Shown: positions 1 to 64,000 of the stretch, in pieces
Position numbering within the stretch: the first letter of the stretch is position 1
Layout: every line of letters starts with the position of its first letter
Origin: a virus
Lineage: Duplodnaviria; Heunggongvirae; Uroviricota; Caudoviricetes
Virus record (IMG/VR): IMGVR_UViG_3300017565_000001
Span: 13,741-77,740 of that record
Reading direction: 5' to 3' (one strand)
Length of the DNA stretch: 64,000 bases
The notes under the pieces: generated by a model
What the model saw: only the letters and a program-made list of their open reading frames with translations
Databases searched by the model: none
Told to the model about the DNA's origin: nothing
Translations under genes and position numbers: made by a program

Positions 1-158
1 TGGAAATCATAGACTTGATGGCACTTGCAAATCAGATGTCAGTTGATTCAAATACTCATTGGGGTTTTAGTTACGAATATCACCATATGGGTTCCGCTAC
101 TCTATCCCTGCAAGTTGAGGATGATGCGTCGGCGGTCATGTTGAAAATGCTGATATGA
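1..158 (+). CDS. 5'-truncated small protein, 'FKL-motif' paralog family
   Basis: Frame 3 is open from the window edge and ends ...QVEDDASAVMLKMLI*; ATGA overlap with the next gene. Confidence 0.55.
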   Translation, partial: EIIDLMALANQMSVDSNTHWGFSYEYHHMGSATLSLQVEDDASAVMLKMLI

Positions 159-397
159 TTGAACTAGTAGTCCCCTGGTCCGCCATGTACCCCACTTATC
201 CCTCGTTTACGGTATATGCTATTAGGGATGCGGTTCCCGCACCTACTACCATGGATCAAATGAATATTTGGTTGAAAGAAGTAGTACCAGATGACTACCA
301 ATGGACCCTTGATTCGGATAATAGGATTGTACTCTTGCTGCCAAACGAAGAAACAGCTATAATGTTCAAGTTGGCTTTCGGCCATATATGGACTTGA
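155..397 (+). CDS. small FKL-motif family protein
   Basis: NIWLKEVV ... EETAIMFKLAF. Confidence 0.75.
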   Translation: MIELVVPWSAMYPTYPSFTVYAIRDAVPAPTTMDQMNIWLKEVVPDDYQWTLDSDNRIVLLLPNEETAIMFKLAFGHIWT

Positions 398-401
398 CCC
401 T

Positions 402-596
402 ATGATTACCTTCCTGTTGCCCAACAAACACAAATCAGTTGTGATCGAGTGGTTGAACACCAACTGCAAAGTGGGAACCTATGGGCTCACGCAATCTCAG
501 GAAGGTAGCATCATTGTGTCTCTGATGGATGAGCTTGATATCACCCACTTTCGCATCGCGTTCTGTGATGACCTTGATGGATTCCTGGAGCTATGA
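402..596 (+). CDS. small FKL-motif family protein
   Basis: VIEWLNTNC ... ELDITHFRIAF; coupled to neighbouring genes. Confidence 0.7.
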   Translation: MITFLLPNKHKSVVIEWLNTNCKVGTYGLTQSQEGSIIVSLMDELDITHFRIAFCDDLDGFLEL

Positions 597-847
597 AGGT
601 TCGAATCGTAATATATGATGGCGTCGTTCAAGGCCATTCAAGCGCCGTCCTGAGGTTTGTATTTCATTCGAGAGTAATCACAGAATGGTTACTTGACAAC
701 AAGTATGAATTTGAGGCAGTACCGAATGATCAGATTCTTCAGTGGCATTTTATCGTCGATGAAGAAATCGCCATGGCGATGAAACTTCGCTATGGCGATT
801 TAACTGAAATCAAGGTATATCCAGTCACATGCGACGAACCAGTGTGA
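593..847 (+). CDS. small FKL-motif family protein
   Basis: ITEWLLDN ... EEIAMAMKLRY. Confidence 0.7.
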   Translation: MKVRIVIYDGVVQGHSSAVLRFVFHSRVITEWLLDNKYEFEAVPNDQILQWHFIVDEEIAMAMKLRYGDLTEIKVYPVTCDEPV

Positions 848-1196
848 TCTGGCGTTTGCGAATACGGCGACTGATAGTTTCCTGAAGGCTTACGGCGTGG
901 CCGGCCTTCAGATCAAAGTCCTTACGGTTGAAGTGCTTGATGTACGGACGGAATGCAAGGAATTGTTCCTTGAAGAAAATGTTGATGGGGATTTGGCGGT
1001 TGCTACCCCACCACCACTCGTCACCAAATTTTAGGAATTGAGCACGCAGCTCTTCCGTGGGGATCATCTCCAGAACATACATGGACAACAGGCTATTGTC
1101 TGAATTCTGGATGATGCCCAGATACTCCTTGCCATCAAAAATGCCATAGCTAAGGAAAGGGAAGGTTTCGAGGATTTTTTCGATTTGTTCGTTCAT
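825..1196 (-). CDS. hypothetical phage protein
   Basis: Open frame; start placed at ATG 1196 (MNEQIEKILETFPFLSY), divergent from the 1283 gene. Confidence 0.65.
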   Translation of the reverse strand: MNEQIEKILETFPFLSYGIFDGKEYLGIIQNSDNSLLSMYVLEMIPTEELRAQFLKFGDEWWWGSNRQIPINIFFKEQFLAFRPYIKHFNRKDFDLKAGHAVSLQETISRRIRKRQITLVRRM

Positions 1197-1282
1197 GAAA
1201 ACGGTATTTTCATTTTGGTTACGTGGATATTTAGTTTCGTAAAAATCACATGAGCTAAATATAGGCATCGTGAGGATTAAAG

Positions 1283-2068
1283 ATGCCAAGCGTAACTCTT
1301 TATAAGATGCCGCAAGTGATCCAAATTTCAGAATCTGGTCTAAGCGTTCACGCCGTGGTAAACAGAACCGATTTCAATCTGTTCCGTGGCGTAACCAATG
1401 AAATCGAATTTCTGCTGAAAAATGCGGATCGTAAACCATCAAACCTGTTGGGTAAAACCTTGTCCATATTCATTGTGGATGAGCGAACCAATACGGTTGT
1501 AGTCCAAACGGGGTTGACTACAATTAGTGAAACCCGTGGACATTGCCGTCTCACGTTGAGCCCTAGCGATGTGGCTGGTCTAGATAATGGCTCATATCGC
1601 TATTCCATTACCGAAACTGTCGGTGACAAACAGACGATTGTCTTTACAGACCAGAATCGTTCATTCAAAGGCTATCTGGAAATGTTTGATGGCCCTATTC
1701 CTAACCCCAACCCATCGCTTGAGATCTCCAAGAACCAGTTTGTATCTGAAACTTGGGGTAATCCTCTCCTGACCTATTACGTGGCAGGACCCTTCCCAGG
1801 GGCGGCACAAGTCGATAACCGTTCGGGTCAGCACACACTAGCACTCTACTGTGATAACTTCTCAGGGCAGTTCTGGGTTGAAGCCAGCCTGGAAAGTGGT
1901 GTGCCAAATAACGATGCCGATTGGTTCCCAGTCATGGATTTTGAAATGACTGAACAGAATGGCATCAAGAGCGTGCAATTCACTGGTTCATACATGTGGG
2001 TTCGCTTCTATTATCAACCAGCTGTCGATAACGACGGTGAAATCACAAAAGCATTGTTGAAGAATTGA
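1283..2068 (+). CDS. probable virion structural protein with Ig-like (BppU N-terminal-like) domain
   Basis: Beta-rich pattern IEFLLKNADRKP..GHCRLTLSPSDVAGLDNGSYRYSI; preceded by CTAAATA late-type promoter. Confidence 0.5.
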   Translation: MPSVTLYKMPQVIQISESGLSVHAVVNRTDFNLFRGVTNEIEFLLKNADRKPSNLLGKTLSIFIVDERTNTVVVQTGLTTISETRGHCRLTLSPSDVAGLDNGSYRYSITETVGDKQTIVFTDQNRSFKGYLEMFDGPIPNPNPSLEISKNQFVSETWGNPLLTYYVAGPFPGAAQVDNRSGQHTLALYCDNFSGQFWVEASLESGVPNNDADWFPVMDFEMTEQNGIKSVQFTGSYMWVRFYYQPAVDNDGEITKALLKN

Positions 2069-2084
2069 TAGCTGGAAAGGTGGT

Positions 2085-3134
2085 ATGTACAATACTACCA
2101 AGAAGGCTATAACAACAATGCAAAACGACTTCCTCAGCCAGAGGGTACTCAGTGCCCTCCCCGCCAAAAGACGGCGATCACCCAACGGTTCTGTCAACTT
2201 CAACTGCCCCATGTGCTTATCAAGAGGTCAGTCAAGACCTGACACCAAACAGCGATGTGGTTTCGCTACCGATCCATTGGGTGCCATCCGTATTAACTGT
2301 TTCAACTGCGGATTTTCCACTAGGTGGGCACCCGGTAACCTGTTGAACAAAAATGTCCGTGAGTTCTTGAAGAACTTGGGGGTGAATGAACTTGAAATCA
2401 AGAAGCTCAACTTCACTGCCTGGCAATTGACTCACAGTGTTGAAGGTGTGGCGAACCTCACCCCCAGTGCTGTATTTGCTCCCAAGTTTGATGTTCGGGA
2501 GCTACCCAAAGACGCCCTGCCATTATCGGTATGGGCGGTGAATGACTGCGACGATCCTGACTTCCTAGCCGTATCGCAATATGCGATGTCGCGGGGAGAT
2601 GCTGTATTCGATAACTATGAGTTCTACTGGACTCCCGACCGTGAAAACGGCATGAATCGTCGCCTTATTGTCCCCTTCTTCTGGCGAGAAGATATCGTGG
2701 GATGGACTGGTCGGTCAGTAGATGCCGCTCGACAACCCAGATACTACACCGATACACCTGCTCACTTCTTGTTCAATAACGTGAACCTGTACCGTGATCG
2801 AAAATATGTGATATTGGTTGAAGGTATTTTTGATGCCCTGTCGATTGATGGCGTGGCAACACAAGGAGCAAAACTGTCAGAACAACAAGCCTATTGGTTA
2901 AAAGAAATAGGCAAGCAAGTAATCGTCCTACCTGACCGAGATGAGAAGGGTCAGCTTATGGTGGACATCGCGTTGAAACATGACTTTATGGTCAGCTTCC
3001 CGAATTGGGATGATGGCATAAAGGACGCAAACGACGCCATCAAGACTTATGGACGACTGTGGACTGTCAAAACCATTATTGACGGGGCAACTGACAACAA
3101 GCTAAAAATCAACCTTTCCCGCAAAAAGTGGTGA
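2085..3134 (+). CDS. DNA primase (T4 gp61/DnaG-like)
   Basis: Zn finger CPMC...CFNC; TOPRIM motifs VEGIFDA, PDRDEKG, KDAND; adjacent to helicase. Confidence 0.9.
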   Translation: MYNTTKKAITTMQNDFLSQRVLSALPAKRRRSPNGSVNFNCPMCLSRGQSRPDTKQRCGFATDPLGAIRINCFNCGFSTRWAPGNLLNKNVREFLKNLGVNELEIKKLNFTAWQLTHSVEGVANLTPSAVFAPKFDVRELPKDALPLSVWAVNDCDDPDFLAVSQYAMSRGDAVFDNYEFYWTPDRENGMNRRLIVPFFWREDIVGWTGRSVDAARQPRYYTDTPAHFLFNNVNLYRDRKYVILVEGIFDALSIDGVATQGAKLSEQQAYWLKEIGKQVIVLPDRDEKGQLMVDIALKHDFMVSFPNWDDGIKDANDAIKTYGRLWTVKTIIDGATDNKLKINLSRKKW

Positions 3135-3135
3135 T

Positions 3136-4605
3136 ATGCAAGAGACAAATAAAAACTACAATATCGATCTGCAAACCCTGTACCTGAACTTCATGTTGAG
3201 TGATCCCACGGGATTTACTCGCTGCCAGAATATCCTGGATCCCAATCATTGGCATGACCGATTGAAGCCAGCGGTCCGTTATGTGCTGGATTTTGCCAAC
3301 GAATATAAGGCACTGCCCACCGTTGAACAGATTAAGGCAGAAACTGGCATTACGACTGAAAAGATTGCTGATATTCAGCAACAACACACTGACTGGTTCT
3401 TACACGAAATCGAACAGTTTTGCCGCCACCGTGCGGTTGAGTTGGTTATGTTTGATGGCGCGGATGCTATCGCGGCAGGCAAATACAGCGAAGTCGAAGC
3501 CAAGCTGAAAGAAGCCCTCACCATCAGTCTACAAAATGATTTGGGTACTGGGTACTTCGATGACCCCAAGAAGCGCATCCAAGAGGTTCTGGACCGTCAG
3601 GACGTTGTTTCTACGGGTTGGAATGCACTTGATTCCAAGCTGTATGGTGGATTCACGAAGGGAACCCTGAACATCTTTGCTGGTGGTTCCGGTTCAGGTA
3701 AGAGCTTGTTCCTGCAGAACCTGGCATTGAACTGGGCGTTTATGGGTCACGACGTTATCTACATTACCCTGGAACTGAGTGAAAACTTGGTGGCAGCTCG
3801 TCTGGACTCAATGGTTACCAGTTATTCAACTAAGGATATTTTCCGCAAGATTGATGACGTTGACCTTAGAGTTCGTATGGCTGGTAAGAAGGCTGGTGAT
3901 CTAAAGATCAAGAAGTTTCCAGAAGCTGGTACTAGCGCTAATGATATCAGGGCGTATATCAAGGAATATGAGATTCAGACTGGCCGCAAGCCAACAGCCA
4001 TGTTGGTTGACTATCTGGACCTGATGTATCCTAATAATAAGAAAATCAATCCATCGGATATGTTCGTGAAAGATAAGTTTGTTTCGGAAGAGCTGCGCGC
4101 TCTGGCTTCTGAGTTCCATCTGTTGTTTGCTACCGCATCACAGTTGAATCGTGGTTCCGTGGAAGCTAACGGTGAATTTGACCATAGCCACATTGCTGGT
4201 GGTATCTCGAAAATCAACACGGCTGACAACGTGTTCGGTATCTTCACCACTATGGCAATGCGCGAACGTGGTGAATATCGGTTGCAGATGTTGAAAACTC
4301 GTAGCTCGAGTTCGGTCGGCCAGCACATTGAACTGGGGTATGATCCGCAATCACTGCGTATTCGTGACCCGGATCTAAATGCTGATATGTTGCAAAAGAA
4401 TGATGCTGCTACGATTGGCAACCAGATTAAGGCGGCAGCTAAGGCAGCCAATAATACAGCCAATAATGTACCAGGACAGGGATATCAACCAGTTGCGCCC
4501 AAGGGTGGAATGCCACCGCCCCCACCGCCAGCACCCCCATCTGCTTCTCCTACGAGAAGGAATATGATGGACATTCTCAACAAGGTTAAAAAGAACATGG
4601 ATTAA
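3136..4605 (+). CDS. replicative DNA helicase (DnaB/T4 gp41-like)
   Basis: Walker A GGSGSGKS, ITLELSE, Walker B VDYLDLM, ATASQLNR, LKTR; Pro-rich C-terminal tail. Confidence 0.92.
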   Translation: MQETNKNYNIDLQTLYLNFMLSDPTGFTRCQNILDPNHWHDRLKPAVRYVLDFANEYKALPTVEQIKAETGITTEKIADIQQQHTDWFLHEIEQFCRHRAVELVMFDGADAIAAGKYSEVEAKLKEALTISLQNDLGTGYFDDPKKRIQEVLDRQDVVSTGWNALDSKLYGGFTKGTLNIFAGGSGSGKSLFLQNLALNWAFMGHDVIYITLELSENLVAARLDSMVTSYSTKDIFRKIDDVDLRVRMAGKKAGDLKIKKFPEAGTSANDIRAYIKEYEIQTGRKPTAMLVDYLDLMYPNNKKINPSDMFVKDKFVSEELRALASEFHLLFATASQLNRGSVEANGEFDHSHIAGGISKINTADNVFGIFTTMAMRERGEYRLQMLKTRSSSSVGQHIELGYDPQSLRIRDPDLNADMLQKNDAATIGNQIKAAAKAANNTANNVPGQGYQPVAPKGGMPPPPPPAPPSASPTRRNMMDILNKVKKNMD

Positions 4606-4666
4606 CAGCAAAGTTATTGTGAATTCACCTTCACTAAATAGGATAATAAACTTTGCTTTTAATTCG

Positions 4667-4942
4667 ATGAGTCAAGATCTGATCCGTGAATATATCGAAA
4701 TAACTGAGTCCATGTTCGTGGGGCCATTACCCCAACCAGAAATCCTCACAGAGGAGGTGCTGGTCGAACATGTGGACCCAGTTCTCGATCCTGCCATCCA
4801 GCAAAAGCTGGAGGATCTCATCTTCAAACTCAGAAACTACCAGGACCCTGAAGTCGGTGAATATGCCGCCGGAATGGAAGCCGGTATGAGTCAAGCTGCT
4901 GATATGCTAGAAAATTTGATTACAAGAATAAAGGGCGAGTAA
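4667..4942 (+). CDS. acidic late protein, possible head-core protein
   Basis: CTAAATA at 4634 favours ATG 4667 as start; I-T-E-S and L-T-E motifs. Confidence 0.6.
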   Translation: MSQDLIREYIEITESMFVGPLPQPEILTEEVLVEHVDPVLDPAIQQKLEDLIFKLRNYQDPEVGEYAAGMEAGMSQAADMLENLITRIKGE

Positions 4943-5211
4943 TGGATAACAAACTGAAAAGTATCGTGGACGAGCTGAGCTCATATGTCCCACCCAAGAA
5001 CAAGGAAGCGGTTATTGAGGGCCGCGCCTTACAAGTTATCGCAAGCGCTCGCAATCTCATTAAATTGGTAGAGGCCAATTTCCCACCAGAAGTTTCAGAA
5101 GACTTGACTAAGCGTCTGCTGTCTGCCATCAAGAATGATGACAGTGAGAAGTTCTGCCGCCGCATTAGGAAAGCAGGTCAACTTAGAGAGCAAAAAGATG
5201 TCAAGAAGTAA
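4942..5211 (+). CDS. hypothetical helical phage protein
   Basis: TAATG coupling; open frame of 89 aa. Confidence 0.7.
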   Translation: MDNKLKSIVDELSSYVPPKNKEAVIEGRALQVIASARNLIKLVEANFPPEVSEDLTKRLLSAIKNDDSEKFCRRIRKAGQLREQKDVKK

Positions 5212-6637
5212 TATAAATGAAGGGTTTTGGGATTCACTCATCACACAAGCCAAGCGTGGCGCTCTGGCTGCTAGTGGTGCTGCTGGTAATAAGAATTCCC
5301 AAGGTAAGCTTTCGGCACTAAACCTGTCTACCGCGCTGTATGATGCGTTCAAGCATTATCAAGGTGAGACTGGAGCTGAGCAGAATGAACAAGATATGAT
5401 GGATTTCTTGTCCAAGAATCTGGGGTTCAGTGATAAGTTTGCTGAGGATCAAGCACGTCGTTTCGAGAACGTCGTTAATGGCTACGATTATGAAGATCCG
5501 GCCGACGACACAAACGATGAACAGGGTTCTGAACAGGGTGACGAATCGACTGATGGGGCTGCGGGCGGCGACGAACGTAAAGAACCAACACTTGATACCA
5601 AGGAGCAACCAGCCGAACAACCAAAGGCCGAAGCTCAACCCGAAGCCGAAGCGAAATCGCAATCAGAAGCCAAGCCCGAAGAAGCAGAACCCGCCGCAGA
5701 GAAGCAAGCCGATGAACAACCGGCTGACACCAAGCAAGATGGTGAGCAAGGAAAATCTGAGGGTGGTGACGCTGAAGCAAAGGAAAAACGCGAAGACAGC
5801 ACTGAACGTTTCATGCAAACAGAAATGTACAATGAAATGTCTATGCAAATTCGTGGTAATGGTGGTCGAACACCTAACTTGATTTTGGTCACTCCCCAAA
5901 ATGCAACTAAGGTCAAGAGTCTGCTAGACGCTGCAAAAGCTGACAAAAAATGGGGAACATTCATAAACAGTCTTGAAGGCATGGGTGCCATGACCTCCTG
6001 GGCAAATCTTCAAGAATTGCTGATGGATAAAGGTGTTGAAATCCCCAAGTCCAAGGTTGGTATGGCGGAAATCATGAAGGATGCATTGAACCAAGCTGGT
6101 AAGTTGGTTGGTTCCAATTATGTACGCAAGGCTGATACCTTTATTGTTGGTGTTCCAGACAAGCCTACTGGTCAAGAATTCAAACTGCGTGAAAGCGTTC
6201 AGTTGAATGAAGATCTGAATGATAAGGAATTGCGTGACTTCTTCCTGAAAGTATCTCAAAGTGCTTTGAAGTCGGGTGAAGCTAAATCAACAGCCAAGCG
6301 CCAGATCAGCAGTGTCAAGAATCGTATCAACAAGAATGGTGCATATCGTGCTCCTGGTGCAAAGACCGCTGCTCCACAAGCTCAGCAGTCTAGCCAACAG
6401 ACCACGCAATCGACACCTTCGGCACAGACTACCAAACAAGGCCAGCCAGCTCAAGCATCATCAACCGCAGTACCAAGTGGTTTGAATGTTAAACTCACCA
6501 AGGCGGATAAGCAGTTGATTGATGATCTGGACGGAACTGATATCGTCGATGCCGTTGATAGTGACATTCCAGATGTGAAGGCCCTGGCCCGCCGCATTAT
6601 TGGTAACGCGATCAACGATTACAAGAACAAAAAGTAA
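5198..6637 (+). CDS. large low-complexity late protein, probable prohead core/internal protein
   Basis: Acidic E/Q/P/A-rich linkers; INEG, LRES and LNED putative protease sites. Confidence 0.6.
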   Translation: MSRSNINEGFWDSLITQAKRGALAASGAAGNKNSQGKLSALNLSTALYDAFKHYQGETGAEQNEQDMMDFLSKNLGFSDKFAEDQARRFENVVNGYDYEDPADDTNDEQGSEQGDESTDGAAGGDERKEPTLDTKEQPAEQPKAEAQPEAEAKSQSEAKPEEAEPAAEKQADEQPADTKQDGEQGKSEGGDAEAKEKREDSTERFMQTEMYNEMSMQIRGNGGRTPNLILVTPQNATKVKSLLDAAKADKKWGTFINSLEGMGAMTSWANLQELLMDKGVEIPKSKVGMAEIMKDALNQAGKLVGSNYVRKADTFIVGVPDKPTGQEFKLRESVQLNEDLNDKELRDFFLKVSQSALKSGEAKSTAKRQISSVKNRINKNGAYRAPGAKTAAPQAQQSSQQTTQSTPSAQTTKQGQPAQASSTAVPSGLNVKLTKADKQLIDDLDGTDIVDAVDSDIPDVKALARRIIGNAINDYKNKK

Positions 6638-6727
6638 GTTCGTAGTTTCTTCTCCCTCCCCCATGGTGCCAAGATATCTTGGCACCATTATTTTGACGTG
6701 GCCAAATGTGAAGCGTATTCTGGTGAT

Positions 6728-7708
6728 ATGAGCATAAAACACTTCGCCAATCTATCCCAAAAACGCCGAACTGAATTCTTGGATCACCCCGAGAGGTTCA
6801 TGTATCAGGAGAAAATTGATGGTTCCAATTTCATAGTTGGCATGACTGATGGGCAATTGTGGACCTCTCGAAAGAGTGGTACCCAACGATATTATGATAT
6901 TGATGACTGGCCCAATCTGCCATGGACCAGACAATTCAGGGCAGTTCATTGGACGTGTTCTGAAATCTTCAAAATGCGCAAAAGTCTTGGCACTGCTCCA
7001 ACTGATGATTTCGTTCTAAATTGTGAAATTCTGAGTCGTGATTATCCCAATACAGTGAAATACTACCACTCGATAAAATCAAAACACCCAGGAACGGACC
7101 ATTTAACCTTAGTCGCATTTGATGCCACGGAAGATCATGACTGGTTGGTACAATCGTCAGCCGGTGCATGTATTTCGTCAATGAGTACCCAAGATGGTAT
7201 TTCGTTGACAGCATATCAGTATGCGTTTGACATATTCGTGACCACCCTTGCCACCAAGTGGTGTGTCCATGCGGCGGGTGATCTTGATGATAGAACGGTA
7301 GAAGAACAGGAACGATTGCTACTTGACCTATATCTTGTCCCATTGGAACGTGGGCAATTTTCTGCCGATCGAATCGAAGGGTTGGTGTTCAAGCACATTA
7401 CTGATGGCTGGATGGTGAAGCTAGTTGATCGCGCAGATTTCACAGCCAGAAATAAAGACAACAACAGCTTCAACACACAGATATTCAGAACCCCTAGAAG
7501 GCTCTCCAACAGCGTGGCGGATCAACTTGAACGCGACTTGTTTGATGGTATGGAAACGCGCAAAGCCGTCGATATAGCCCGTTCTAGGGCTTATTCGATA
7601 CTGGAAAACTATCTCGCCAATCCATCAACTGAATATTCAAGGCATATGCGAAATATGGAGGCTATGGCTTCCTTCTTAACCGAATTGGAAAAGAAAAATG
7701 GGCGGTAA
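6728..7708 (+). CDS. Rnl2-like RNA ligase / covalent nucleotidyltransferase domain protein
   Basis: Motif I EKIDGSN, CEIL, AFD, motif IV EGLVFK, motif V VKLVD; sigma70 promoter TTGACG-17-TATTCT at 6693. Confidence 0.65.
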   Translation: MSIKHFANLSQKRRTEFLDHPERFMYQEKIDGSNFIVGMTDGQLWTSRKSGTQRYYDIDDWPNLPWTRQFRAVHWTCSEIFKMRKSLGTAPTDDFVLNCEILSRDYPNTVKYYHSIKSKHPGTDHLTLVAFDATEDHDWLVQSSAGACISSMSTQDGISLTAYQYAFDIFVTTLATKWCVHAAGDLDDRTVEEQERLLLDLYLVPLERGQFSADRIEGLVFKHITDGWMVKLVDRADFTARNKDNNSFNTQIFRTPRRLSNSVADQLERDLFDGMETRKAVDIARSRAYSILENYLANPSTEYSRHMRNMEAMASFLTELEKKNGR

Positions 7709-8567
7709 AGCCTTTGATGATACAAAACCAGTAGCTAGGGATCGCATCATACCTATCATCGAATGGTATCTGAAGGCGTTGGGTGGTTTTCGTTTCACTA
7801 CTCTGGGTAGTACCGGTAAGAAGGATATGAGTGGTGACATTGATTTGGCCGTACAATCGATAAATGGATTCACATTTGATTTCGGCGCCTTGAGTGGTTT
7901 TGCCCATGAAGCTGCACTGCGTGTTATGGTTCTGAAACTTGAGAAGATCTTGGGTGTGGACAATGTCAAACCCAATATTCGCTTCAGTCAAATATATACT
8001 CGATGGCATGATCCACAGGGCGGCGATCCTGTTCAGGTGGACTTCATGCTAGGTGACATGGCTTTGTTAGCATTCACTCACTGGTCGCCAGAACCACATA
8101 CTAGCCAGTATTCAGGAGCACATAGGACTGAATATTTGAAAGCTGTGGCAAAGTCACTCAGCAGGGTAGAATCAGTGGATGGGCGAGTTGTGGCAAGAGT
8201 TGGCTATACTCTGCATCATGATCGAGGCCTTGAATACAGCCCTAGGTGGTGCAAACCACGGCAAGACGGTGAAGGATATACGGTCAAAATGGTAAAGGTT
8301 AGTGATGCTGATATCGAGTTGTTTGAAGCCACCTTTCCGTTGTTAGTCAGCAAGAAAGAATCACACGGATTTACTACTGATCCCAGGATTATCTGTGAGC
8401 GGTTGTTTGATACCGGAGTCACTCCCGATATGGTAAATAGTTACGAACAAATTGCTGATTTGGTCAAAAACAGCCATCATCTTTATATCAACCGGGATTT
8501 AATCTGGCAGCTTTATGTAGAGCGATTGGTGGAGATCAAACAGCCTATACCAAAGAGGTTTGTATGA
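7698..8567 (+). CDS. Pol-beta superfamily nucleotidyltransferase
   Basis: LGSTGKKDMSGDIDLAV signature and a third acidic residue in VQVDFM. Confidence 0.7.
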   Translation: MGGKAFDDTKPVARDRIIPIIEWYLKALGGFRFTTLGSTGKKDMSGDIDLAVQSINGFTFDFGALSGFAHEAALRVMVLKLEKILGVDNVKPNIRFSQIYTRWHDPQGGDPVQVDFMLGDMALLAFTHWSPEPHTSQYSGAHRTEYLKAVAKSLSRVESVDGRVVARVGYTLHHDRGLEYSPRWCKPRQDGEGYTVKMVKVSDADIELFEATFPLLVSKKESHGFTTDPRIICERLFDTGVTPDMVNSYEQIADLVKNSHHLYINRDLIWQLYVERLVEIKQPIPKRFV

Positions 8568-24685: not shown

Positions 24686-24700
24686 TTTAAGGAAATAACT

Positions 24701-47389: not shown

Positions 47390-47443
47390 CTTTGTTCATT
47401 TGATTGTGTATCATTTGGTATAGAGTCAACAAGGAGAACGACT

Positions 47444-51493: not shown

Positions 51494-51757
51494 TTGCCGG
51501 AGCCTCAGATGTATTGGTTTAAGGGTGACGACCCGCTAGTGGTGCGGGTAATTGACAGATTGTATGTGGACCTGGTGAGAAGCCGGGAACTCTGTGATCC
51601 AGATGAGATTTTGGCGCCAATAGCCGCTCAGTGCAATGCTCTTTATGGCAAAGTATCTGAGCGGTTTGGACCATCTGAAGAGTACGAATGTTTGGTATGC
51701 GCGTTTCGGTTCAAGACTGAAATGGACATGCTTGCGTTCATACTTCGATATCAATAG
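51494..51757 (+). CDS. FKL-motif family protein
   Basis: FRFKTEMDMLAFILRY; TAG stop. Confidence 0.65.
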   Translation: MPEPQMYWFKGDDPLVVRVIDRLYVDLVRSRELCDPDEILAPIAAQCNALYGKVSERFGPSEEYECLVCAFRFKTEMDMLAFILRYQ

Positions 51758-52706: not shown

Positions 52707-53134
52707 ATCCTAACATTCACACCATGTACCATTCCGCTGGCGCGAGATTTCATGGTATTCAATTGACTGACTACGCCAAACCCCACGAATCGTTAATGTG
52801 GGAACCTGACGTCAAGCTGATTCACACTCGTGCTGAACTCTATACTAAGGTTGTGAGCTTGTGGGCTCGTCCATTCTCTACTGATGAAACAGTGTCAGTA
52901 GAAGAATGGTTGCATAATTACGAAAGCGTTAGTGGGGAGTTCAGCGTCCCATGTAGGGCTATGATTGCCGCCGGCAGATTCTACATGGTAAATTGTGGCA
53001 ACTACTACGATGAATGGACTCATTGGTTGGACGACAATGTACCCGCAGCCGATTGTACATGGTGGGGAGGTCTGGTATTCTTCACCAGAGAGGCTGACGC
53101 CATAATATTCAAATTGCACTTTGGTGAACAATGA
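52703..53134 (+). CDS. FKL-motif family protein
   Basis: WTHWLDDNV...W...FFTREADAIIFKLHF. Confidence 0.75.
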   Translation: MNPNIHTMYHSAGARFHGIQLTDYAKPHESLMWEPDVKLIHTRAELYTKVVSLWARPFSTDETVSVEEWLHNYESVSGEFSVPCRAMIAAGRFYMVNCGNYYDEWTHWLDDNVPAADCTWWGGLVFFTREADAIIFKLHFGEQ

Positions 53135-53439
53135 CCGTCTATTCGTATGCCCCTGAGGCCCAACAATTCAAGGATGAAAGCATATCGATATCCAAACGAG
53201 TGCTTGACTATTCTCGCCTAATCAATTCCCCACTCGACACATATGATGCGGTGAAGCTTGGTGCTCCGTATGCGAAGTTCCCACCAGGTACTGACCCCGA
53301 AGTCAGAGCAAAGGCCCTTCTTTGGGCCCTGGAAGAATTCGGGAAGGAACATGTGATGAGCGACATGCTGGGAGCCAGCTATGTGTTGTTCAGTACTTGG
53401 AACCAAGCCATGATGTTTAAGCTCAGGTGGGCGCCTTGA
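53131..53439 (+). CDS. FKL-motif family protein
   Basis: LLWALEEFG ... FSTWNQAMMFKLRW. Confidence 0.75.
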   Translation: MTVYSYAPEAQQFKDESISISKRVLDYSRLINSPLDTYDAVKLGAPYAKFPPGTDPEVRAKALLWALEEFGKEHVMSDMLGASYVLFSTWNQAMMFKLRWAP

Positions 53440-54842: not shown

Positions 54843-54953
54843 ATGAAATGGCTAGGCATCGTCCTAGCCATTCTTACATTTGGCATGTTGCTTTTCATCT
54901 GCTTTGCTGTAAATTGTTTGGCTAGAGTTTCTTACTTTGGCAAAACAATATGA
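54843..54953 (+). CDS. 36-aa membrane peptide
   Basis: [23 protein letters not shown]...; ATGA overlap with guaC. Confidence 0.45.
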
Positions 54954-56203
54954 AAATCGAAAACGAAATTAAGCTTGATTTCAAAGACGTTCTGTTCAAG
55001 CCCAAGCGTTCTGACCTTGATAGCCGTAAGGATGTTGATCTCATCCGCGAATTCACGTTTCCACACTCAGGCCATTACTGGCGTGGTGTTCCTATCATCG
55101 CTGCCAACATGGATACCGTCGGTACCTTGGATATGCACTATGCGCTATCCAAGCACCAGATGATGACCGCTTTGCACAAGCATCAATGGTCCCTAGAGGA
55201 TCACTTCATGGGTGGGCTGGTTCCACCCACCGACCCAAGCAAGTTTGCAGAATTCTACCTGGAGATTGAACAGCATCAAAGGAATGCTCTGGGAATCCCA
55301 TTGAGTAATCGTGGTGATTATGAGCCCAACAAGGCCACTAATAGCCAGTATTCCTTTTACTCCATGGGACGGACTCATGAGGACTATGCAAAGTTCCAAG
55401 CTCTTTATCTGTCCCTCATGCAGAAAACTGGCATCATCAAAACTGGTGATTTCCACTTACATCCGCTCAAATTCGTATGCATCGATGTCGCCAATGGATA
55501 CACGGCTTCCTTCTTGAAATTCGTTGAATCCTTCCGTAAGCAATTCCCCCATGTCACCCTCATGGCTGGCAATGTCGTGACTGCTGATGTCACCCACGAT
55601 CTCATCAGTGCTGGAGTGGACATCGTCAAGGTGGGCATCGGGCCTGGTTCTGTTTGCACGACTCGCAAGATGACCGGTGTTGGTTATCCCCAATTGTCTG
55701 CTGTCATTGAATGTGCGGAAGCCGCTCATGCGGCGGGTGGACTCATCTGTTCTGATGGTGGGTGTACAGTGCCTGGTGATGTCGCGAAAGCATTTGGGGC
55801 CGGTGCTGACTTCGTAATGCTGGGTGGTATGCTGGCTGGTCATGACCAATCGGGTGGAGACATCATTTCTGAATGGCATGAAACCACCCAGATCATTCGT
55901 GATAACGGGGCGGCTATTGGCAACCTTCACGAGGAACGTAAGTTCAAAGAGTTCTATGGTATGAGTTCTGACACTGCCATGAACAAGCACAATGGAGGGG
56001 TGGCAGAGTATCGTGCATCAGAGGGTAAGACCGTGAGGGTTCCTTATCGGGGAGACGTGCAGGCGACCATCCAGGGGATCCTAGGGGGTCTTCGCAGCAC
56101 TTGTACCTATGTGGGGGCTGCCAGACTCAAAGACCTCACGAAGGTCACCACATTCATTCGCGTCACCCAACAAATCAACGAAGTCTTCGGAAAGTCACAA
56201 TGA
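54950..56203 (+). CDS. guaC: GMP reductase
   Basis: [58 protein letters not shown]; no CBS domain. Confidence 0.93.
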
Positions 56204-57701: not shown

Positions 57702-58265
57702 ATGACTGAACGTAACGTTTACCAACTCGAACTGCCTGAGGGCATGACGCCTGAACAAGTAAGTGCTCTGATTGATGACGTCAAGACTCGTATGACCAAG
57801 AAACCAGCCAAGTACGTAAGTACAAAGACTTATGGTGCCGAACGTGGTTTTGCGGTTGCTTATCGCCAATGGCGAGCTGACAGCCACTGCAACCTGATTC
57901 ACGGTTACTCTATGGGCTTTCACTTTGAATTCCAGAGCGAAGAACTGGACGTCCGTAACTGGGTGGTGGATTTTGGTTCACTGAAGACTCTGAAGGAAAA
58001 GCTGGAAGACTGGTTTGATCATACTTGTTTGGTGGCACAAGACGATCCTGAATTTGCAACCTTTGAGGAACTGCACAAGAAGGGCTTGATCAAGATGGTT
58101 GTCGTCGAACGAACGGGCTGCGAAGGTCTGGCAACTTTCCTGGCTGAATACATCCAGGATATCTGGATGGAAGAAAACGGTTACAAGGGCCGGGTTGAAC
58201 TCCGTAAGGTTGAGGTACGGGAAACCCCCAGCAACTCTGCTATGTGGCTGAACCCCAACTTGTAA
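57702..58265 (+). CDS. queD: 6-carboxy-tetrahydropterin synthase
   Basis: SHCNLIHGYS, VVDFG.LK, FDH, E.LA, VRETPSN.A. Confidence 0.88.
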   Translation: MTERNVYQLELPEGMTPEQVSALIDDVKTRMTKKPAKYVSTKTYGAERGFAVAYRQWRADSHCNLIHGYSMGFHFEFQSEELDVRNWVVDFGSLKTLKEKLEDWFDHTCLVAQDDPEFATFEELHKKGLIKMVVVERTGCEGLATFLAEYIQDIWMEENGYKGRVELRKVEVRETPSNSAMWLNPNL

Positions 58266-58341: not shown

Positions 58342-59019
58342 TTGTTCGCAAACACCTCTGACAGCCGTGCGGTGCAACTGAACACCGCAATGAGCAAGGT
58401 TTACGGCTACATGAGCTTTGGCCTGTTGGTCACTGCTCTCGTGGCTTTCATCACGTCGCAATCACCGGCCATGATGGCTGCGATCTTCGGTACTCCACTC
58501 AAGTGGGTGGTACTGTTGTCCCCGCTGGTCTTCATCCTGATCATGAGCTTCGCGCTGGAGAAGCTCAGCCGAACGGCCCTGCAACTGTTGTTCGTCGCAT
58601 TCAGCACTGTGATGGGTCTGAGTATGAGCACGTTGCCTCATATCTACACGGGACTCAGCTTGTTCAGTACGTTCCTACTCACGGGTGGCCTGTTTGGTGC
58701 CATGTCCTTCTACGGTTACTTCACCAAGAAAGACCTGACGTCCTGGGGTCAACTGTTGTTCTGGGCTCTGATCGGCATCATCATTGCCATGGTCGTGAAC
58801 ATTTTCCTGGGTAGCTCCATGCTCAGCACGATCATCAGCATGGTTGCCGTTGTGGTGTTCCTGGGCCTGACCGCCTATGACACCCAGAAGATCCGTGAAA
58901 TGATGTGGGATGGTGATTCCGACGGCAAGGTCGCAATCATGGGCGCAGTCACCCTGTACCTGGACTTCATCAACCTGTTCATCCACCTGCTGAATCTGAT
59001 CGGCGTCAAGAAGGACTAA
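58342..59019 (+). CDS. Bax inhibitor-1/YccA family membrane protein
   Basis: Seven TM segments; KVYGYM, TKKDLT, YDTQKIR, GAVTLYLDFINLFIHLL. Confidence 0.92.
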   Translation: MFANTSDSRAVQLNTAMSKVYGYMSFGLLVTALVAFITSQSPAMMAAIFGTPLKWVVLLSPLVFILIMSFALEKLSRTALQLLFVAFSTVMGLSMSTLPHIYTGLSLFSTFLLTGGLFGAMSFYGYFTKKDLTSWGQLLFWALIGIIIAMVVNIFLGSSMLSTIISMVAVVVFLGLTAYDTQKIREMMWDGDSDGKVAIMGAVTLYLDFINLFIHLLNLIGVKKD

Positions 59020-59520: not shown

Positions 59521-60090
59521 CTACGACCTCTCAGTAATCTCCACAATATCCTGCGAGTTCATGAGTCTGAATAACACCAGATCCCTTACCTCGTGACAAT
59601 AGAACAGGTTCTTGTTCACGAACCATTCTCCAATCATCAATCCCTTGTAGGGGCTGGTATCAATTGGTTCCTTTACTCGCACCCGGTGCTCAAACTTGTG
59701 GTAAAATGGCCCCTTGTTCTTGGGCTTCACATCGACGATATTCCAGCATGACTCGTGGATAACCCGGATGGATTGAAACTCCAGCTTGTCACTCATGTAT
59801 CTGCGAATCGTTCCCAAAAGGGCAGGGTCGTCAGAGTACAGGTTAAAGTACAGGCCCTGTTGGCTAGTCACCAGCCTATGATCCGTACCCTTGGTAAGGC
59901 TCTGTAGATCATTCAGTATGTCGCTGTACTCTGTCCATAACGAAACGTCAGGGCTGCATAGAAGGGCCCAACGATATTGTCCAAAATACAAAGCACGTTT
60001 CACCAATTGGACGTTGCCCTCATCAATCAATTCATGATTGATAAAAGTTCGTACCGCTTTGTAAGTTCGTTGATTCCAAGAGAATTTCAT
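59521..60090 (-). CDS. FKL-motif family protein, long form
   Basis: LFYCHEVRDLVLFRL; TAG stop followed by a bidirectional terminator. Confidence 0.65.
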   Translation of the reverse strand: MKFSWNQRTYKAVRTFINHELIDEGNVQLVKRALYFGQYRWALLCSPDVSLWTEYSDILNDLQSLTKGTDHRLVTSQQGLYFNLYSDDPALLGTIRRYMSDKLEFQSIRVIHESCWNIVDVKPKNKGPFYHKFEHRVRVKEPIDTSPYKGLMIGEWFVNKNLFYCHEVRDLVLFRLMNSQDIVEITERS

Positions 60091-60645: not shown

Positions 60646-61002
60646 TCAAAAGGACAATTTGAACAGAACAACACTTTCAGGATCAATGATTGATATTACG
60701 GTTCTGGTGCCGTAGCTATATCCCCATTTGGGATTTTTGAACTCCTGACTCATCACACGGTTTTGTATATTCCGCTCTAGCAAGTGGGCAACGAAATCAC
60801 CAAGCACCTGATCGTTCTTTTCACCCCAAGCAACGGCCAACAATACCACATCTTGGTTTACTCCCACATCAATTAGGAGCAGATCCAATTTATGAAGATC
60901 ACGCAAACCATGTGAAAACTTTTCATTTGCTGTTTCAAACCCTTGAGGTCTTGTGATTTGAATCACGTGACCTTTGATTGTGAATACTAGATCGTTATTC
61001 AT
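60646..61002 (-). CDS. FKL-motif family protein
   Basis: IIDPESVVLFKLSF*. Confidence 0.7.
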   Translation of the reverse strand: MNNDLVFTIKGHVIQITRPQGFETANEKFSHGLRDLHKLDLLLIDVGVNQDVVLLAVAWGEKNDQVLGDFVAHLLERNIQNRVMSQEFKNPKWGYSYGTRTVISIIDPESVVLFKLSF

Positions 61003-61270
61003 AACCCAGAATGCTCGTGTCGTTATTCCATGTCAGCTTGAACATCATTGCATCTTCGTCATTTGCGAAAAACAAAATGACTTCGTATCGAGAAGAGGCC
61101 TGGACTAATGGTTCGTACTTGACGTCGTATGGTGCCATGATATTGTGTTCATGAAACCAGAACACCACTTCAGGTCGCAATATGAAAGTCTTTCTGGCAT
61201 AACCAGGTCGTTCGGGGTCGTTTATCCATTTTGGTTGGATGAATTTGGGATGAATAGTAGCTTTAGCCAT
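60995..61270 (-). CDS. FKL-motif family protein
   Basis: VFWFHEHN ... FFANDEDAMMFKLTW. Confidence 0.75.
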   Translation of the reverse strand: MAKATIHPKFIQPKWINDPERPGYARKTFILRPEVVFWFHEHNIMAPYDVKYEPLVQASSRYEVILFFANDEDAMMFKLTWNNDTSILGYE

Positions 61271-61625
61271 GTTTCAATTTCAACATCATGATTTCATTAG
61301 AATCGTCAACTACGAATGAAAGGATTGGGTTACTCGTAACACCTAAACCGTCATTGATTCCGGGAATCACCTCAGTGCGGCATTGAGCCCAATGTTCGGC
61401 TAATATGTTACCAACGGCAGTTTCTGAATAGTGCCGAGATTTCATTACCACATACCTGAGAATATTGGGATCATCGCTAACGTTCACGATACAGAATGAT
61501 GCCGCTGTCAATTGTCGATAACCGATATGACGTCGATAGGTGGACAACATTGTAATTCGATCTGCTGGTAGTGGATGACATACTAGCAGCACACCCTCGG
61601 GAGTATCAACCAGATAGAAAGTCAT
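61263..61625 (-). CDS. FKL-motif family protein
   Basis: VDDSNEIMMLKLK. Confidence 0.65.
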   Translation of the reverse strand: MTFYLVDTPEGVLLVCHPLPADRITMLSTYRRHIGYRQLTAASFCIVNVSDDPNILRYVVMKSRHYSETAVGNILAEHWAQCRTEVIPGINDGLGVTSNPILSFVVDDSNEIMMLKLKHG

Positions 61626-61882
61626 TCCAAATAATCCTCTGGGATCCATTTAAGTTTGAACATCATCGCATCAGTATCCGAGGCAAACAGGAAAGACACT
61701 TTCTCGTGCTTGCTCCATCGACCATTTCTTGGCATGTACATGACCGATGGCTTTTCAATACCATGCTCAATGAACCACGATTGCATGACTAAAGATAGAA
61801 TAAAGGTCTTTTCAAACTGACCTTCGCCACTAGTCATCCAATCATAAACGACGCAACGAGGATCTACTAATACTTCTACCAT
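61622..61882 (-). CDS. FKL-motif family protein
   Basis: QSWFIEHG ... FLFASDTDAMMFKLKW. Confidence 0.75.
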   Translation of the reverse strand: MVEVLVDPRCVVYDWMTSGEGQFEKTFILSLVMQSWFIEHGIEKPSVMYMPRNGRWSKHEKVSFLFASDTDAMMFKLKWIPEDYLE

Positions 61883-61923
61883 AGAAAGGGCCACCTTCTG
61901 TTATGGAAGGCAGCCCCGAGGTA

Positions 61924-63288
61924 TTACTTGAGCTTCTTGAGCGCTTCCAGTTCTGAACTGTAAATTTCCTTCATCTTGGTTGGCGACTTCAACGTGGCCT
62001 TGTATTCCTTGATGTTTGCCGTCAAGCGCGCGATGTTCTCCTTGACAGTACCCAGGAAGTCTTGGGCCCAACGATACGTGGGTAGGCTCACAATCTTGTC
62101 AATCTGATCGGTATCGAGGCCAATAGCGGAAGTCACGTTGGTAACGTCAGCCATAATTGCACTCTTGTCCGTCTGCTTGATAAGACGTCCAGGCAGCTTA
62201 TCATCAAAGCACGCCTTCACACCCTGCCAGTAACGCAGTTCGTATTCGTCATCGGCGAGCATTTTTGCATAACGTTTGGTATACCAGCTCAAACGCCATA
62301 CAACGAATTCCTTCACTACTGTTTCTGGATTTTCGTATTGCCGAATGCTCTTGCCATTCCAATCAATTACCACGATACGCTCTGTTTCGCGTTCGCGCAA
62401 CTTGAAATATTCGATCAGATCGTTTTCTGTCCAATCCTTCAGAGCGCCACGCTTGAATTTGACTTGTACGTGGATGGTATCAGTGCTTCGATCCGTATAA
62501 CTGTAGATCTTTTGCTCTTCTTCCATTTTGTTCAAACGCTTCTTGAACGATTCCAGATTCAGACCTGGCGGTAGTTCTGTGATGAGCGCCGTTGACGAGT
62601 CAACAACCTCAGCACGTCCACGGAACTCCCATACGTTGGGCTCCAGGGGATTTACCACGATATTCAGGTAATCGTAGCTGGGCTCTAGGCCCTTTGGTTC
62701 TTTCCCTTCTAGGGCAGCCTGCGTAGCCGTAATAAGCTTCTTGAGGTTGCGAGGCAAGATGTTGGTAGACCAACCCACAGCCAGACCCTCAACACCATTC
62801 AGCAACACCATGGGAATGAGTGGTAGGAAATGCTCAGGTTCCCAATTTGAACCGTCGTAGTTCTCTTTCATGGGAACCACGTCCAAGTCTGGATACAACA
62901 GCATTTCGCCAGCCTTGCTCTTCTTCACGTAGGTATAACGTGGAGCACCGATACCTTCCACTGGGGCAACACGGGTACCAAAAGCACCGATACCTTCCAG
63001 TAGGGGAACATTGTTGACATATGGAGCGGCAAGCATGGAGATGGCACCAGACGCAGATGCGTCACCGTGCATATAGAGTCCACTGCTGATCATTTCACCA
63101 GCAAGGGAAACCGTCTTGATCTTTTCACTCTTGGACTTGACTAGCCAGAGTGCTTTGCGGGGACCATCCTTTAGACCATCGGCGACTCTGGGAATCGCTC
63201 GTGACTGCGCCACATAGATCGAATAGTCTTTAGATGATTCATTGATATAATCACTAGCAGGAGTTTTTGATGTTTGTTTCGTTGACAT
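61924..63288 (-). CDS. type IIA DNA topoisomerase, breakage-reunion subunit (T4 gp52/GyrA-like)
   Basis: RAIP...DGLK..RK, YMHGDAS, APRYT catalytic Tyr, P..LLNG.EG.AVGW.T, ITELPP. Confidence 0.93.
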   Translation of the reverse strand: MSTKQTSKTPASDYINESSKDYSIYVAQSRAIPRVADGLKDGPRKALWLVKSKSEKIKTVSLAGEMISSGLYMHGDASASGAISMLAAPYVNNVPLLEGIGAFGTRVAPVEGIGAPRYTYVKKSKAGEMLLYPDLDVVPMKENYDGSNWEPEHFLPLIPMVLLNGVEGLAVGWSTNILPRNLKKLITATQAALEGKEPKGLEPSYDYLNIVVNPLEPNVWEFRGRAEVVDSSTALITELPPGLNLESFKKRLNKMEEEQKIYSYTDRSTDTIHVQVKFKRGALKDWTENDLIEYFKLRERETERIVVIDWNGKSIRQYENPETVVKEFVVWRLSWYTKRYAKMLADDEYELRYWQGVKACFDDKLPGRLIKQTDKSAIMADVTNVTSAIGLDTDQIDKIVSLPTYRWAQDFLGTVKENIARLTANIKEYKATLKSPTKMKEIYSSELEALKKLK

Positions 63289-63335
63289 TTTGGTTATTAT
63301 TGTTGTGATATGTCAGTTTACATCTGACTACCTAG

Positions 63336-63776
63336 TTATGCAAAAGTGAGTTTGAACATCACCATATCTTCGGCTCTGCTGAATGCCACCGTGACAATGC
63401 TGTCGAGTAACGGTGTGTCACTTACTGCCCAATACCCAGTCGCATGTTCCTTACACCAATTAACATAGTCGGTTTGTTTTGGATATTTGGGTGATTTTGT
63501 TCCAGTAACAGTGAACAGAATATCTTCCATATAATGTGGAACCTTGAATGTTCCATTATATGGAAGGAATTTTAATATTCTTTCTCGAATATTGTCTTGT
63601 TGTGTCACTTGCTTTGGTATAATGTCAATGAACCGCCAGTTGTAATACAGTTTGCTCAAATCATGCAGCTTGAAGTAATCCTCATGAAGTCTGAGTTGTT
63701 TGTCCTCCAAAATATGAGGTTCCAACCAGGCGATAAGGCGTGAATGCGTGAGTTTCTTTCGATTGCGGATTTTCAT
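63336..63776 (-). CDS. FKL-motif family protein
   Basis: VNWCKEHATG.W ... FSRAEDMVMFKLTF. Confidence 0.75.
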   Translation of the reverse strand: MKIRNRKKLTHSRLIAWLEPHILEDKQLRLHEDYFKLHDLSKLYYNWRFIDIIPKQVTQQDNIRERILKFLPYNGTFKVPHYMEDILFTVTGTKSPKYPKQTDYVNWCKEHATGYWAVSDTPLLDSIVTVAFSRAEDMVMFKLTFA

Positions 63777-63988
63777 ACATATTTCCGGATTGGTAGTTCT
63801 TCGGTGAGAGTCAGTGCCAAAAGATTCGCCATTGATGCGTCAGGCAATGTGTTGAGAATGAATTTGAAGCACGGAACTCCGTATTTGAATCTGGCTCTCT
63901 GCGCCATAACAAATTCCACGGTGACCATCACGTCAGGTCCAACATGTTGGACCGCTAAATCAAAGAACTTTTTCAAATCCCTGATCAT
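63773..63988 (-). CDS. divergent FKL-motif family protein
   Basis: LPDASMANLLALTL; the upstream gene at the window edge also ends ...LKLK*. Confidence 0.5.
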   Translation of the reverse strand: MIRDLKKFFDLAVQHVGPDVMVTVEFVMAQRARFKYGVPCFKFILNTLPDASMANLLALTLTEELPIRKYV

Positions 63989-64000
63989 TTCAGCTTCAAA

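Follow-up and report, generated by a model that had tools for sequence, protein, structure and literature searches.

Hyperplastic regions of T4-type phages are runs of small, non-essential early open reading frames (ORFs), and bacterial poly-immunity arrays (SUKH, Imm) hold small α+β immunity proteins, each thought to neutralize a different partner. A comparative review of 224 jumbo phages reported a zinc-ribbon family of ∼35 copies in Bacillus phage G (Iyer et al. 2021, PMC7824862). Here we analyzed a stretch of 64,000 nucleotides from a tailed phage (bases 13741-77740 of one 424,529-bp contig, IMG/VR record IMGVR_UViG_3300017565_000001; hereafter the window), in which many small genes end in a helix with the signature D-A-x-x-F-K-L-x-aromatic. 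These genes are diverged copies of one undescribed phage domain, which we refer to as the FKL-W family. As in phage G, dozens of diverged copies of a small domain occur in one huge phage, and the function is a matter of guesswork (PMC7824862). The FKL-W family is absent from the jumbo-phage review, and a literature search with the motif string FKLRW returned no relevant paper.

Family members in the window

An initial annotation of this DNA had proposed about 30 copies, a quarter of the genes, sharing a C-terminal motif. The motif is shared by many window genes: a tight C-terminal regular expression, A-x-x-h-(K/R)-L-x-aromatic, recovers 12 true ORF tails, and a looser tail pattern occurs in 12 of 123 gene-like ORFs, compared with an expectation of 0.4 (and at most 3) when these tails were shuffled 200 times. 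A hidden Markov model (HMM) was started from the clear-cut members; iterated over the window's 991 stop-to-stop ORFs, it converges on 15 strong members at E<1e-3. A relaxed threshold adds 6 probable members (E 2e-4 to 8e-3), which stand well clear of the noise beginning at E∼0.2. As an independent control, we compared each of 123 greedy gene calls by hhalign with a 70-sequence family alignment (profile A3), which placed 11 calls at ≥90% probability, 10 at 50-90%, 3 at 20-50%, and 99 below 20%. Five of the six probable members score 57-89% by hhalign, 51137-51460 not being among them; the greedy gene call had dropped this gene as well as 155-397, and including both leaves the total of 21 unchanged. 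The supported copies number 21 of ∼123 genes (17%; 15 strong and 6 probable): the family is real, but the initial figure is an upper bound. About nine further genes carry the last-helix motif alone (3-158, 24075-24323, and those starting at 25084, 25637, 26017, 26244, 26627, 36431, and 50110), while three genes originally listed as members (27186-27638, 27632-27880, and 59521-60090) have no family support (hhalign <20%). The arrays were located correctly, as were the singletons at 29202, 30238, 38099, and 40746, whereas the singleton at 36437 is weak. The supported and possible members are as follows (lengths in amino acids, aa; identities and dN/dS, the ratio of nonsynonymous to synonymous substitution rates, refer to the orthologue named; L004 and L007 are contigs).

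155-397, + strand: strong member, 80 aa; HMM E 4e-18; tail AIMFKLAF; orthologue P0138
593-847, + strand: strong member, 84 aa, with a 17-residue tail beyond the motif; HMM E 1e-9; hhalign 95.9%
14205-14510, - strand: strong member; HMM E 8e-19; hhalign 98.3%; orthologue in L007; true start probably near 14444, judged from orthologue P0007
24320-24685, + strand: strong member, 121 aa; HMM E 5e-15; hhalign 97.7%
29202-30014, + strand: strong member, 270 aa, with the domain N-terminal (residues ∼19-66); HMM E 4e-10; hhalign 92%
30238-30474, + strand: strong member, 78 aa; HMM E 1e-12; hhalign 98.1%; orthologues P0012 and P0121
38099-38299, + strand: strong member, bare domain of 66 aa, structure predicted below; HMM E 5e-17
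40746-41063, + strand: strong member, 105 aa; HMM E 2e-10; hhalign 84.6%
50418-50762, + strand: strong member, 114 aa, FKLYW followed by the stop codon; HMM E 3e-12; hhalign 83%
52670-53134, + strand: strong member, 154 aa, long N-terminal extension; HMM E 2e-18; hhalign 98%
53131-53439, + strand: strong member, 102 aa, 4-nt overlap between its start and the stop of the member upstream; HMM E 8e-18; hhalign 97.3%
60995-61270, - strand: strong member, 91 aa; HMM E 2e-12; hhalign 99.1%; L004 orthologue 87% identical, dN/dS 0.12
61263-61625, - strand: strong member, 120 aa (P0005 start), end MMLKLKHG; HMM E 5e-14; L004 orthologue 73% identical, dN/dS 0.11
61622-61894, - strand: strong member, 85-90 aa; HMM E 2e-12; hhalign 98.3%; orthologue P0002 81% identical, dN/dS 0.03
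63336-63776, - strand: strong member, 146 aa; HMM E 1e-14; hhalign 98.5%; L004 orthologue 55% identical, dN/dS 0.21
402-596, + strand: probable member, 64 aa; HMM E 2.3e-4; hhalign 87.5%
13915-14220, - strand: probable member in which the helix-1 signature EWCRTNIG alone scores; HMM E 5.7e-3; hhalign 56.7%; L007 orthologue E 1.2e-3
50766-51212, + strand: probable member, end AFILKWG; HMM E 3.2e-3; hhalign 88.7%
51137-51460, + strand: probable member, end AFMLKWG; HMM E 4.6e-3
51494-51757, + strand: probable member, end AFILRYQ; HMM E 7.6e-3; hhalign 67%
60646-61002, - strand: probable member, end VLFKLSF; HMM E 1.1e-3; hhalign 63.8%; L004 orthologue 82% identical, dN/dS 0.05
3-158, + strand: possible member, truncated by the window edge, end AVMLKMLI; hhalign 54%; HMM E 0.36
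36431-36685, + strand: possible weak member with EADAMALYLAYG; hhalign 34%; HMM E 1.3
50110-50421, + strand: possible weak member with TDQVAILKLRF; hhalign 38.9% over 37 columns; HMM E 5.9

The domain lies at the extreme C terminus in 20 of the 21 supported members. The exception, 29202-30014, has an architecture that is rare in the family, and the remaining 200 aa of this protein have no Pfam match. The near-identical DNA described at the ends of two neighbors was found again: the 13-mer AAATGGGGTTGAT matches exactly at 51201 and 51449, and by coordinate arithmetic the in-frame ATG of 51137-51460 at 51203 falls within the K-W codons of the upstream gene. Translational coupling, initially attributed to the members in general, applies to roughly one gene in three, with stop-start overlaps of 4-16 nt; the others are mostly separated by gaps of 1-16 nt.

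Six genes between 24 and 27 kb that carry only the last-helix motif form a local subgroup:

24075-24323, + strand: subgroup gene
25084-25458, + strand: subgroup gene
25637-25951, + strand: subgroup gene
26017-26247, + strand: subgroup gene
26244-26627, + strand: subgroup gene, structure predicted
26627-26971, + strand: subgroup gene

Their helix reads T/S-D/E-E-Q-x-h-h-h-K/R-L, and the span that they occupy (24075-26971) also holds the strong member 24320-24685 and an unrelated ORF at 24701-24967. Orthologues of the subgroup occur in close relatives only. Profile-profile comparison of the subgroup with the family (hhalign) gives a probability of 9-20% with 13-21 columns aligned, in the last helix only, and the loose tail motif is present in three of the six genes, far above chance. 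The AlphaFold2 model of 26244-26627 (predicted local distance difference test, pLDDT, 71) has the order β-β-β-α-β-β-α, the C-terminal part of which is compatible with β-α-β-β-α; an Atlas shape search with this model did not return the clusters of the family. The subgroup forms a local group of its own and may or may not belong to the family.

Fold and conserved residues of the domain

The unit shared by the main group is a domain of ∼55-65 residues with the order β-α-β-β-α, almost always located at the very C terminus of a protein of 57-150 aa. We modeled the 66-aa member 38099-38299, which consists of the bare domain, with AlphaFold2, using 15 paralogues as the alignment (pLDDT 89.8). The model places a strand at residues 3-9, a helix at 11-25, strands at 32-37 and 46-52, and a second helix at 55-65. 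This predicted arrangement corresponds to a two-layer α/β sandwich, similar to a ferredoxin/ACT-like arrangement minus its last strand, and it agrees with the small α/β scaffold proposed at the outset.

Conservation and length counts rest on 466 relatives collected in ∼1 Mb around the IMG/VR motif matches listed. In helix 1 a W is present in 92% of these relatives, followed by E/D-N/H, confirming the helix (E/D)-W-(C/L)-x-(E/D)-(N/H)-x-G that had been noticed upstream of the motif. F is found in 89% at the F-x-F of strand 3, and helix 2 reads D (66%), A (88%), x, x, F (96%), K (76%), L (96%), x, W (79%). The signature residues of all three elements (helix-1 W, strand-3 F-x-F, helix-2 D-A-x-x-F-K-L-x-aromatic) are present in alignments A1-A3. 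The distance from the domain end to the protein end is ≤2 residues in 371 of the 466 relatives and ≤10 in 444, while N-terminal extensions range from none to ∼100 residues; only three relatives have >150 aa ahead of the domain, and only three contain two domains.

The residues in the strands of the modeled protein alternate between hydrophobic (V5, L7; W32, W34, F36; Y46, V48, F50, F52) and polar (R4, E6; C33, T35, E37; D47, T49, R51), and the conserved A/F/K/W positions of helix 2 are spaced i, i+3, i+4, i+7. Taken together with the predicted secondary structure, this periodicity suggests that the conserved residues build the hydrophobic core and the contact between the helices, and that the open face of the sheet is polar and variable. 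The helix-2 spacing and its co-conservation with the helix-1 W and the strand-3 F-x-F suggest that the motif belongs to the fold core, which argues against the initial suggestion that the conserved helix is a dedicated docking surface. The variable parts that had been postulated are real: copies differ in the N-terminal extension, in the length of the β2-β3 hairpin, and at those strand positions that lie between the conserved hydrophobic ones, on the side of the sheet predicted to face solvent. These parts would carry specificity.

At the invariant A, K, and L, all synonymous codons are in use. This scatter places the constraint at the protein rather than the DNA level, and we reject a DNA-level explanation of the conserved end on these grounds. 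An isoelectric point below 6 was calculated for 22 of 33 candidates, compared with 21 of 51 other small ORFs, and this acidic bias speaks against general nucleic-acid binding. Co-folding of the 66-aa member as a homodimer, based on alignment A3, gave a score of 0.00; run without controls, it weighs neither way.

Database and fold comparisons

In hmmscan searches of members and relatives against Pfam-A, PHROGs v4, NCBIfam 20, and PADLOC-DB 2, we obtained isolated sub-threshold chance matches only, and profile searches of PDB sequences gave nothing significant. The domain has neither a catalytic motif nor a known binding motif. One candidate, phiKZ gp034 (PDB 9xps), reached E 1.2 with a 15-sequence profile via DELGAVIFKLSY and was rejected: the match vanishes with the 70-sequence profile, and the phiKZ genome has no match. 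The initial annotation named two outcomes that would have dissolved the family, namely convergence of the motif on unrelated proteins and identity with a characterized domain; the structures of the main group are not unrelated, and no characterized domain was matched.

Fold searches with the predicted structure (PDB, AFDB clusters, BFVD, and Atlas), as the initial annotation had recommended, returned only uncharacterized phage proteins or generic small sandwiches at background level; none of the fold matches rose above background or carried functional information. The background-level shapes include the TyrA ACT domain (Z 7.2), V-ATPase subunit a, designed ferredoxins, RNA recognition motifs (RRM), KH, Pcc1, VPA0419, and YiiS/DUF406, and the best viral and Atlas shape matches are unnamed phage proteins. 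RRM and KH chains lie within the background (Foldseek E 0.1-0.35, Z 5-6.7), with no Pfam match.

The ACT domain of TyrA (PDB 5v0s/5uyy) has the same order of elements, with both helices on one face of the sheet, and superposes with a root-mean-square deviation of 2.1-2.2 Å over 59-60 residues, although its Z score is at the level obtained for unrelated models. It differs in having a fourth strand, in its 8% identity, and in the ligand-loop motif that the family lacks, and none of the 30 members and relatives scanned matches Pfam ACT at E≤1 or E≤0.01; the resemblance is one of shape only. The full four-strand arrangement β-α-β-β-α-β was not seen: the model has three strands and its chain ends with helix 2, and the relatives end 0-2 residues later. 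The best-fitting whole small proteins are proteobacterial, namely VPA0419 (2jz5), VC_A0919 (2khd), and YiiS/DUF406 (2k3i), with template modeling (TM) scores of 0.70 and 0.61 (Foldseek), Z 6.3-6.7 (VIA), and TM 0.69 for the DUF406 Atlas cluster. They differ from the family in showing 11-18% identity and no common motif and in being cellular rather than viral, and they are themselves uncharacterized.

Distribution across phages

The whole 424-kb genome holds 42-48 copies, the family making up about 6-7% of it. When 1.84 billion representatives were searched with a profile of 15 paralogues, 480 clusters were returned at E≤1e-3; almost all of them are unnamed and 57-150 aa long. The Atlas clusters of the family are 96-100% viral and the BFVD matches are all phage proteins; the family is confined to phage sequences. 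As a side observation, P0011, a metagenomic protein of 519 aa, has eight tandem repeats, each with a Q-K-W-C-I-E-N-N-I helix like helix 1 and without the FKL-W helix; its profile match probably stems from the helix-1-like element alone, in a repeat protein unrelated to the family.

The proposed search of phage genomes with an HMM of the members was carried out: the cultured Sinorhizobium phage Phosso has 53 matches to the family profile and Atu_ph07 only 5 weak ones, and no match was obtained in the genomes of GAP32, Vibrio phage 2.275.O, T4, and phiKZ. In IMG/VR, a degenerate DNA pattern for D-A-M-x-F-K-L-x-W is found in at least 118 stretches of IMG/VR contigs of 4 to 608 kb. Five of these records have 76, 63, 63, 54, and 40 profile matches, and the four with 54-76 copies are 416-608 kb long. 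On a 110-kb ENA contig, ∼27 of ∼52 genes within 20 kb are members, and a 42-kb phage contig carries one relative together with genes for Gad1 and NinX. When single members were searched by tblastn against 50,697 phage records, two had no match, and the only family match of P0043 was Phosso (E 0.02). Fusions to known domains were not found: a word search with long queries returned the query alone, and Pfam gave nothing significant on 13 longer relatives.

Evolution and selection

An 11-kb contig of a related phage (L004) is collinear with the 57.7-64 kb region of the window. The housekeeping genes of the two are 94-99% identical and the family members 55-87%, and gene pairs between them have dN/dS of 0.03-0.21. 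Over nine orthologue pairs, core columns are 74% identical and the remaining columns 66%, indicating that the copy-specific parts are also retained. This near-equal retention fits separate functions better than the one common partner initially envisaged. Within the window, in agreement with the first description, members lie on both strands and have divergent N termini; paralogue core identity has a median of 20% and a maximum of 52%, and the closest paralogue is often not the neighbor. Paralogue divergence, collinearity with L004, dN/dS, and orthologue conservation together indicate that the expansion is old, positionally stable, and maintained copy by copy under purifying selection.

Genome context

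IMG/VR lists the record as a complete virus that has direct terminal repeats. The encoded topoisomerase IV-A-like protein shares 58% identity with its counterpart in Sinorhizobium phage Phosso (469 kb), 53.5% with that in Agrobacterium phage Atu_ph07 (490 kb), and ∼40% with those in RaK2-type phages, and DNA of the phage (59500-64000 looked up) is present in soil DNA metagenomes only. On the basis of these topoisomerase identities and the occurrence in soil metagenomes, we assign the genome to an uncultured jumbo phage of soil origin that is Atu_ph07/Phosso-like. No phage match was obtained by megablast with 1283-8567.

The family genes are located in accessory gene runs. Other encoded products include a Toprim primase, a DnaB-like helicase, ribonucleotide reductase (RNR), a PAAR protein, and a topoisomerase subunit, together with the following, among which the three RNA-repair genes are scattered in the window:

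6698-7708: RNA ligase
43676-44884: RtcB
48731-49621: RlaP nucleotidyltransferase
51789-52706: arginase-family protein
54950-56203: IMPDH/GMP-reductase-like protein
57702-58265: PTPS/QueD
58342-59019: Bax1-I
49625-50110, + strand: DUF7695
27872-28279, + strand: phage transfer-messenger RNA (tmRNA)
39389-39463, + strand: tRNA with anticodon CUA

The DUF7695 gene stands directly upstream of a family array, and the same arrangement occurs in L003 (8556-8879), an unrelated 35-kb metagenomic phage contig. The tmRNA gene lies directly behind the 24-28 kb array of small genes and scores 128 bits with the Rfam model beta_tmRNA and 134 bits with tmRNA_permuted; the tag peptide given by ARAGORN is ANDNVYAAAA, and the betaproteobacterial type of the model may hint at the host. 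The tRNA (Rfam tRNA, 65.9 bits) is of the amber suppressor type and is labeled tRNA-Pyl(cta) by ARAGORN. A gene-free gap of 214 bp (26972-27185) opens with three tandem copies of CACGAGTATT.

Two words recur in intergenic DNA. The T4-late-like word CATAAATA lies just 5′ of several genes (9215, 11599, 15008, 23503, 40249, 51473, and 54150, + strand), including the gene for the large subunit of RNR, the family member 51494, and the operon that continues into the 24-28 kb array; genome-wide, 35 of 68 ATAAATA sites are intergenic. The second, TTCATTTG(G/A), is followed a few bases on by TAnAnT (28850-28880, 32075-32100, 40490-40512, and 47395-47430). TTCATTTG is enriched 4.5-fold in intergenic DNA, and the combination may be a phage-specific promoter.

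Discussion

What dozens of old, separately maintained copies of one small domain do for the phage is the weakest step of our argument. Our best guess, offered tentatively, is that they form a panel of small, non-enzymatic proteins that bind host or rival-phage proteins stoichiometrically. The proteins would act as mostly acidic, cytoplasmic binders, each copy holding one host or rival-phage protein, and the phage would thereby carry a standing panel of takeover or counter-defense factors and not redundant copies of one activity. Such a host-interaction or anti-defense role is compatible with the location of the genes in accessory regions and with the relative on the Gad1-bearing contig. Several points weigh against the proposal. 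The fold matches, being at background, say nothing about function. That the conserved residues are buried is deduced from sequence periodicity rather than from coordinates. A purely structural role of the last helix does not explain why the chain stops 0-2 residues past it, and the free C terminus could itself be functional. Finally, selection on the orthologues is purifying rather than diversifying, so that no fast arms race can be seen over this time-scale.

The chain end right past the conserved helix, which a purely structural helix leaves unexplained, is the chief reason why another reading is still alive, unlikely as we consider it: an adaptor library, in which the C-terminal helix with its free end would dock all copies on one common hub (a host machine or a phage complex), while the variable N terminus and hairpin would bring different cargo or specificity. 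The domain is nearly always last, and the chain stops one residue past the conserved W in 176 of 365 motif-recognized ORFs; N-terminal extensions vary freely and C-terminal ones are rare. More than one face of helix 2 is hydrophobic (71% of members have L/M at the position between A and F), and K is widely kept though it is not core-type. However, the conserved positions have the periodicity of core packing and are co-conserved with the helix-1 W and the strand-3 F-x-F, paralogue-specific regions are conserved between orthologues, many members (57-67 aa) are the domain alone and so have no cargo, and no candidate hub gene was found. In its most far-reaching form, which seems to us quite unlikely, the last helix and an obligatorily free C terminus would be a universal plug that loads dozens of small 'heads' on one hub, for example RNA polymerase, the ribosome, a protease, or a phage compartment. 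If true, this would be a modular adaptor system that follows the logic of degron or capsid-targeting tags while using a folded domain for the purpose.

Three further explanations are less likely than the panel of binders. The nearest solved shapes (ACT of TyrA, RRMs, KH), the Atlas ACT clusters at TM 0.59-0.70, and the neighboring nucleotide-metabolism and RNA-repair genes (RNR, RtcB, RlaP, IMPDH-like) would suit ACT- or RRM-like binders that sequester a small molecule (an immune signaling nucleotide or a metabolite) or bind RNA or DNA on the open sheet, acting as a sponge or regulator. We regard this as just as doubtful as the universal plug: the Z scores are typical of unrelated small sandwiches, identity is 3-17%, the last ACT/RRM strand is missing, Pfam ACT, RRM, and KH are not matched, the proteins are mostly acidic, and the sheet positions away from the helices appear variable and polar in the modeled member, judged from sequence and secondary structure. 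It is improbable that the copies are dispensable filler, that is, a recombination-spread, self-propagating or neutrally tolerated cassette whose conserved end is a DNA recombination or translational-coupling signal. The arrays do lie in plastic regions of many unrelated phages with variable copy number (Atu_ph07 against Phosso), and last codons can hold the start of the next gene, such as the ATG within AAATGG at 51203; but synonymous codons are scattered at invariant residues, which places the constraint at the protein level, the low dN/dS goes with positions that are kept in a relative beside near-identical housekeeping genes, and the paralogues diverged long ago, recent duplicates with more than 52% identity being absent. 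Very improbable, in our view, is a role as structural or assembly parts, either small subunits that decorate the virion or an oligomerizing scaffold. Phages of the Atu_ph07 group, which includes the closest cultured relatives, have virions with hair-like fibers (PMC7824862), and a three-stranded sheet with a free edge could extend via strand pairing; yet Atu_ph07 itself is nearly devoid of matches, the genes lie amid replication and metabolism genes and not in a structural module, and the copies are too diverged for one repetitive assembly.

Huge phages are rich in unexplained small genes, and here one uncatalogued domain reaches 76 copies in related and unrelated large phages. A defined family, a fold, a C-terminal rule, and a cultured carrier (Phosso) turn these anonymous ORFs into a testable set. 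If the copies bind host or defense proteins, they amount to an extensive natural collection of small inhibitors; should all of them share one hub, they represent a new way for phages to organize takeover.

Comparison with known systems

The panel of separate binders that we favor resembles bacterial poly-immunity arrays in having arrays of diverged small binders on one scaffold. It differs from them in its setting, which is a phage and not a cell, in that toxin genes are not adjacent here, and in that no sequence or profile relation was found. With T4-type hyperplastic regions the family shares small, packed, often overlapping genes between replication and nucleotide-metabolism genes; whereas T4 has no match to the family profile, here one family supplies much of the filling. 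The zinc-ribbon family of phage G has another fold, and the FKL-W family lacks metal ligands. Unlike the phage G family, the FKL-W family is not limited to one lineage: it extends over at least 118 IMG/VR stretches, with up to 76 copies per record.

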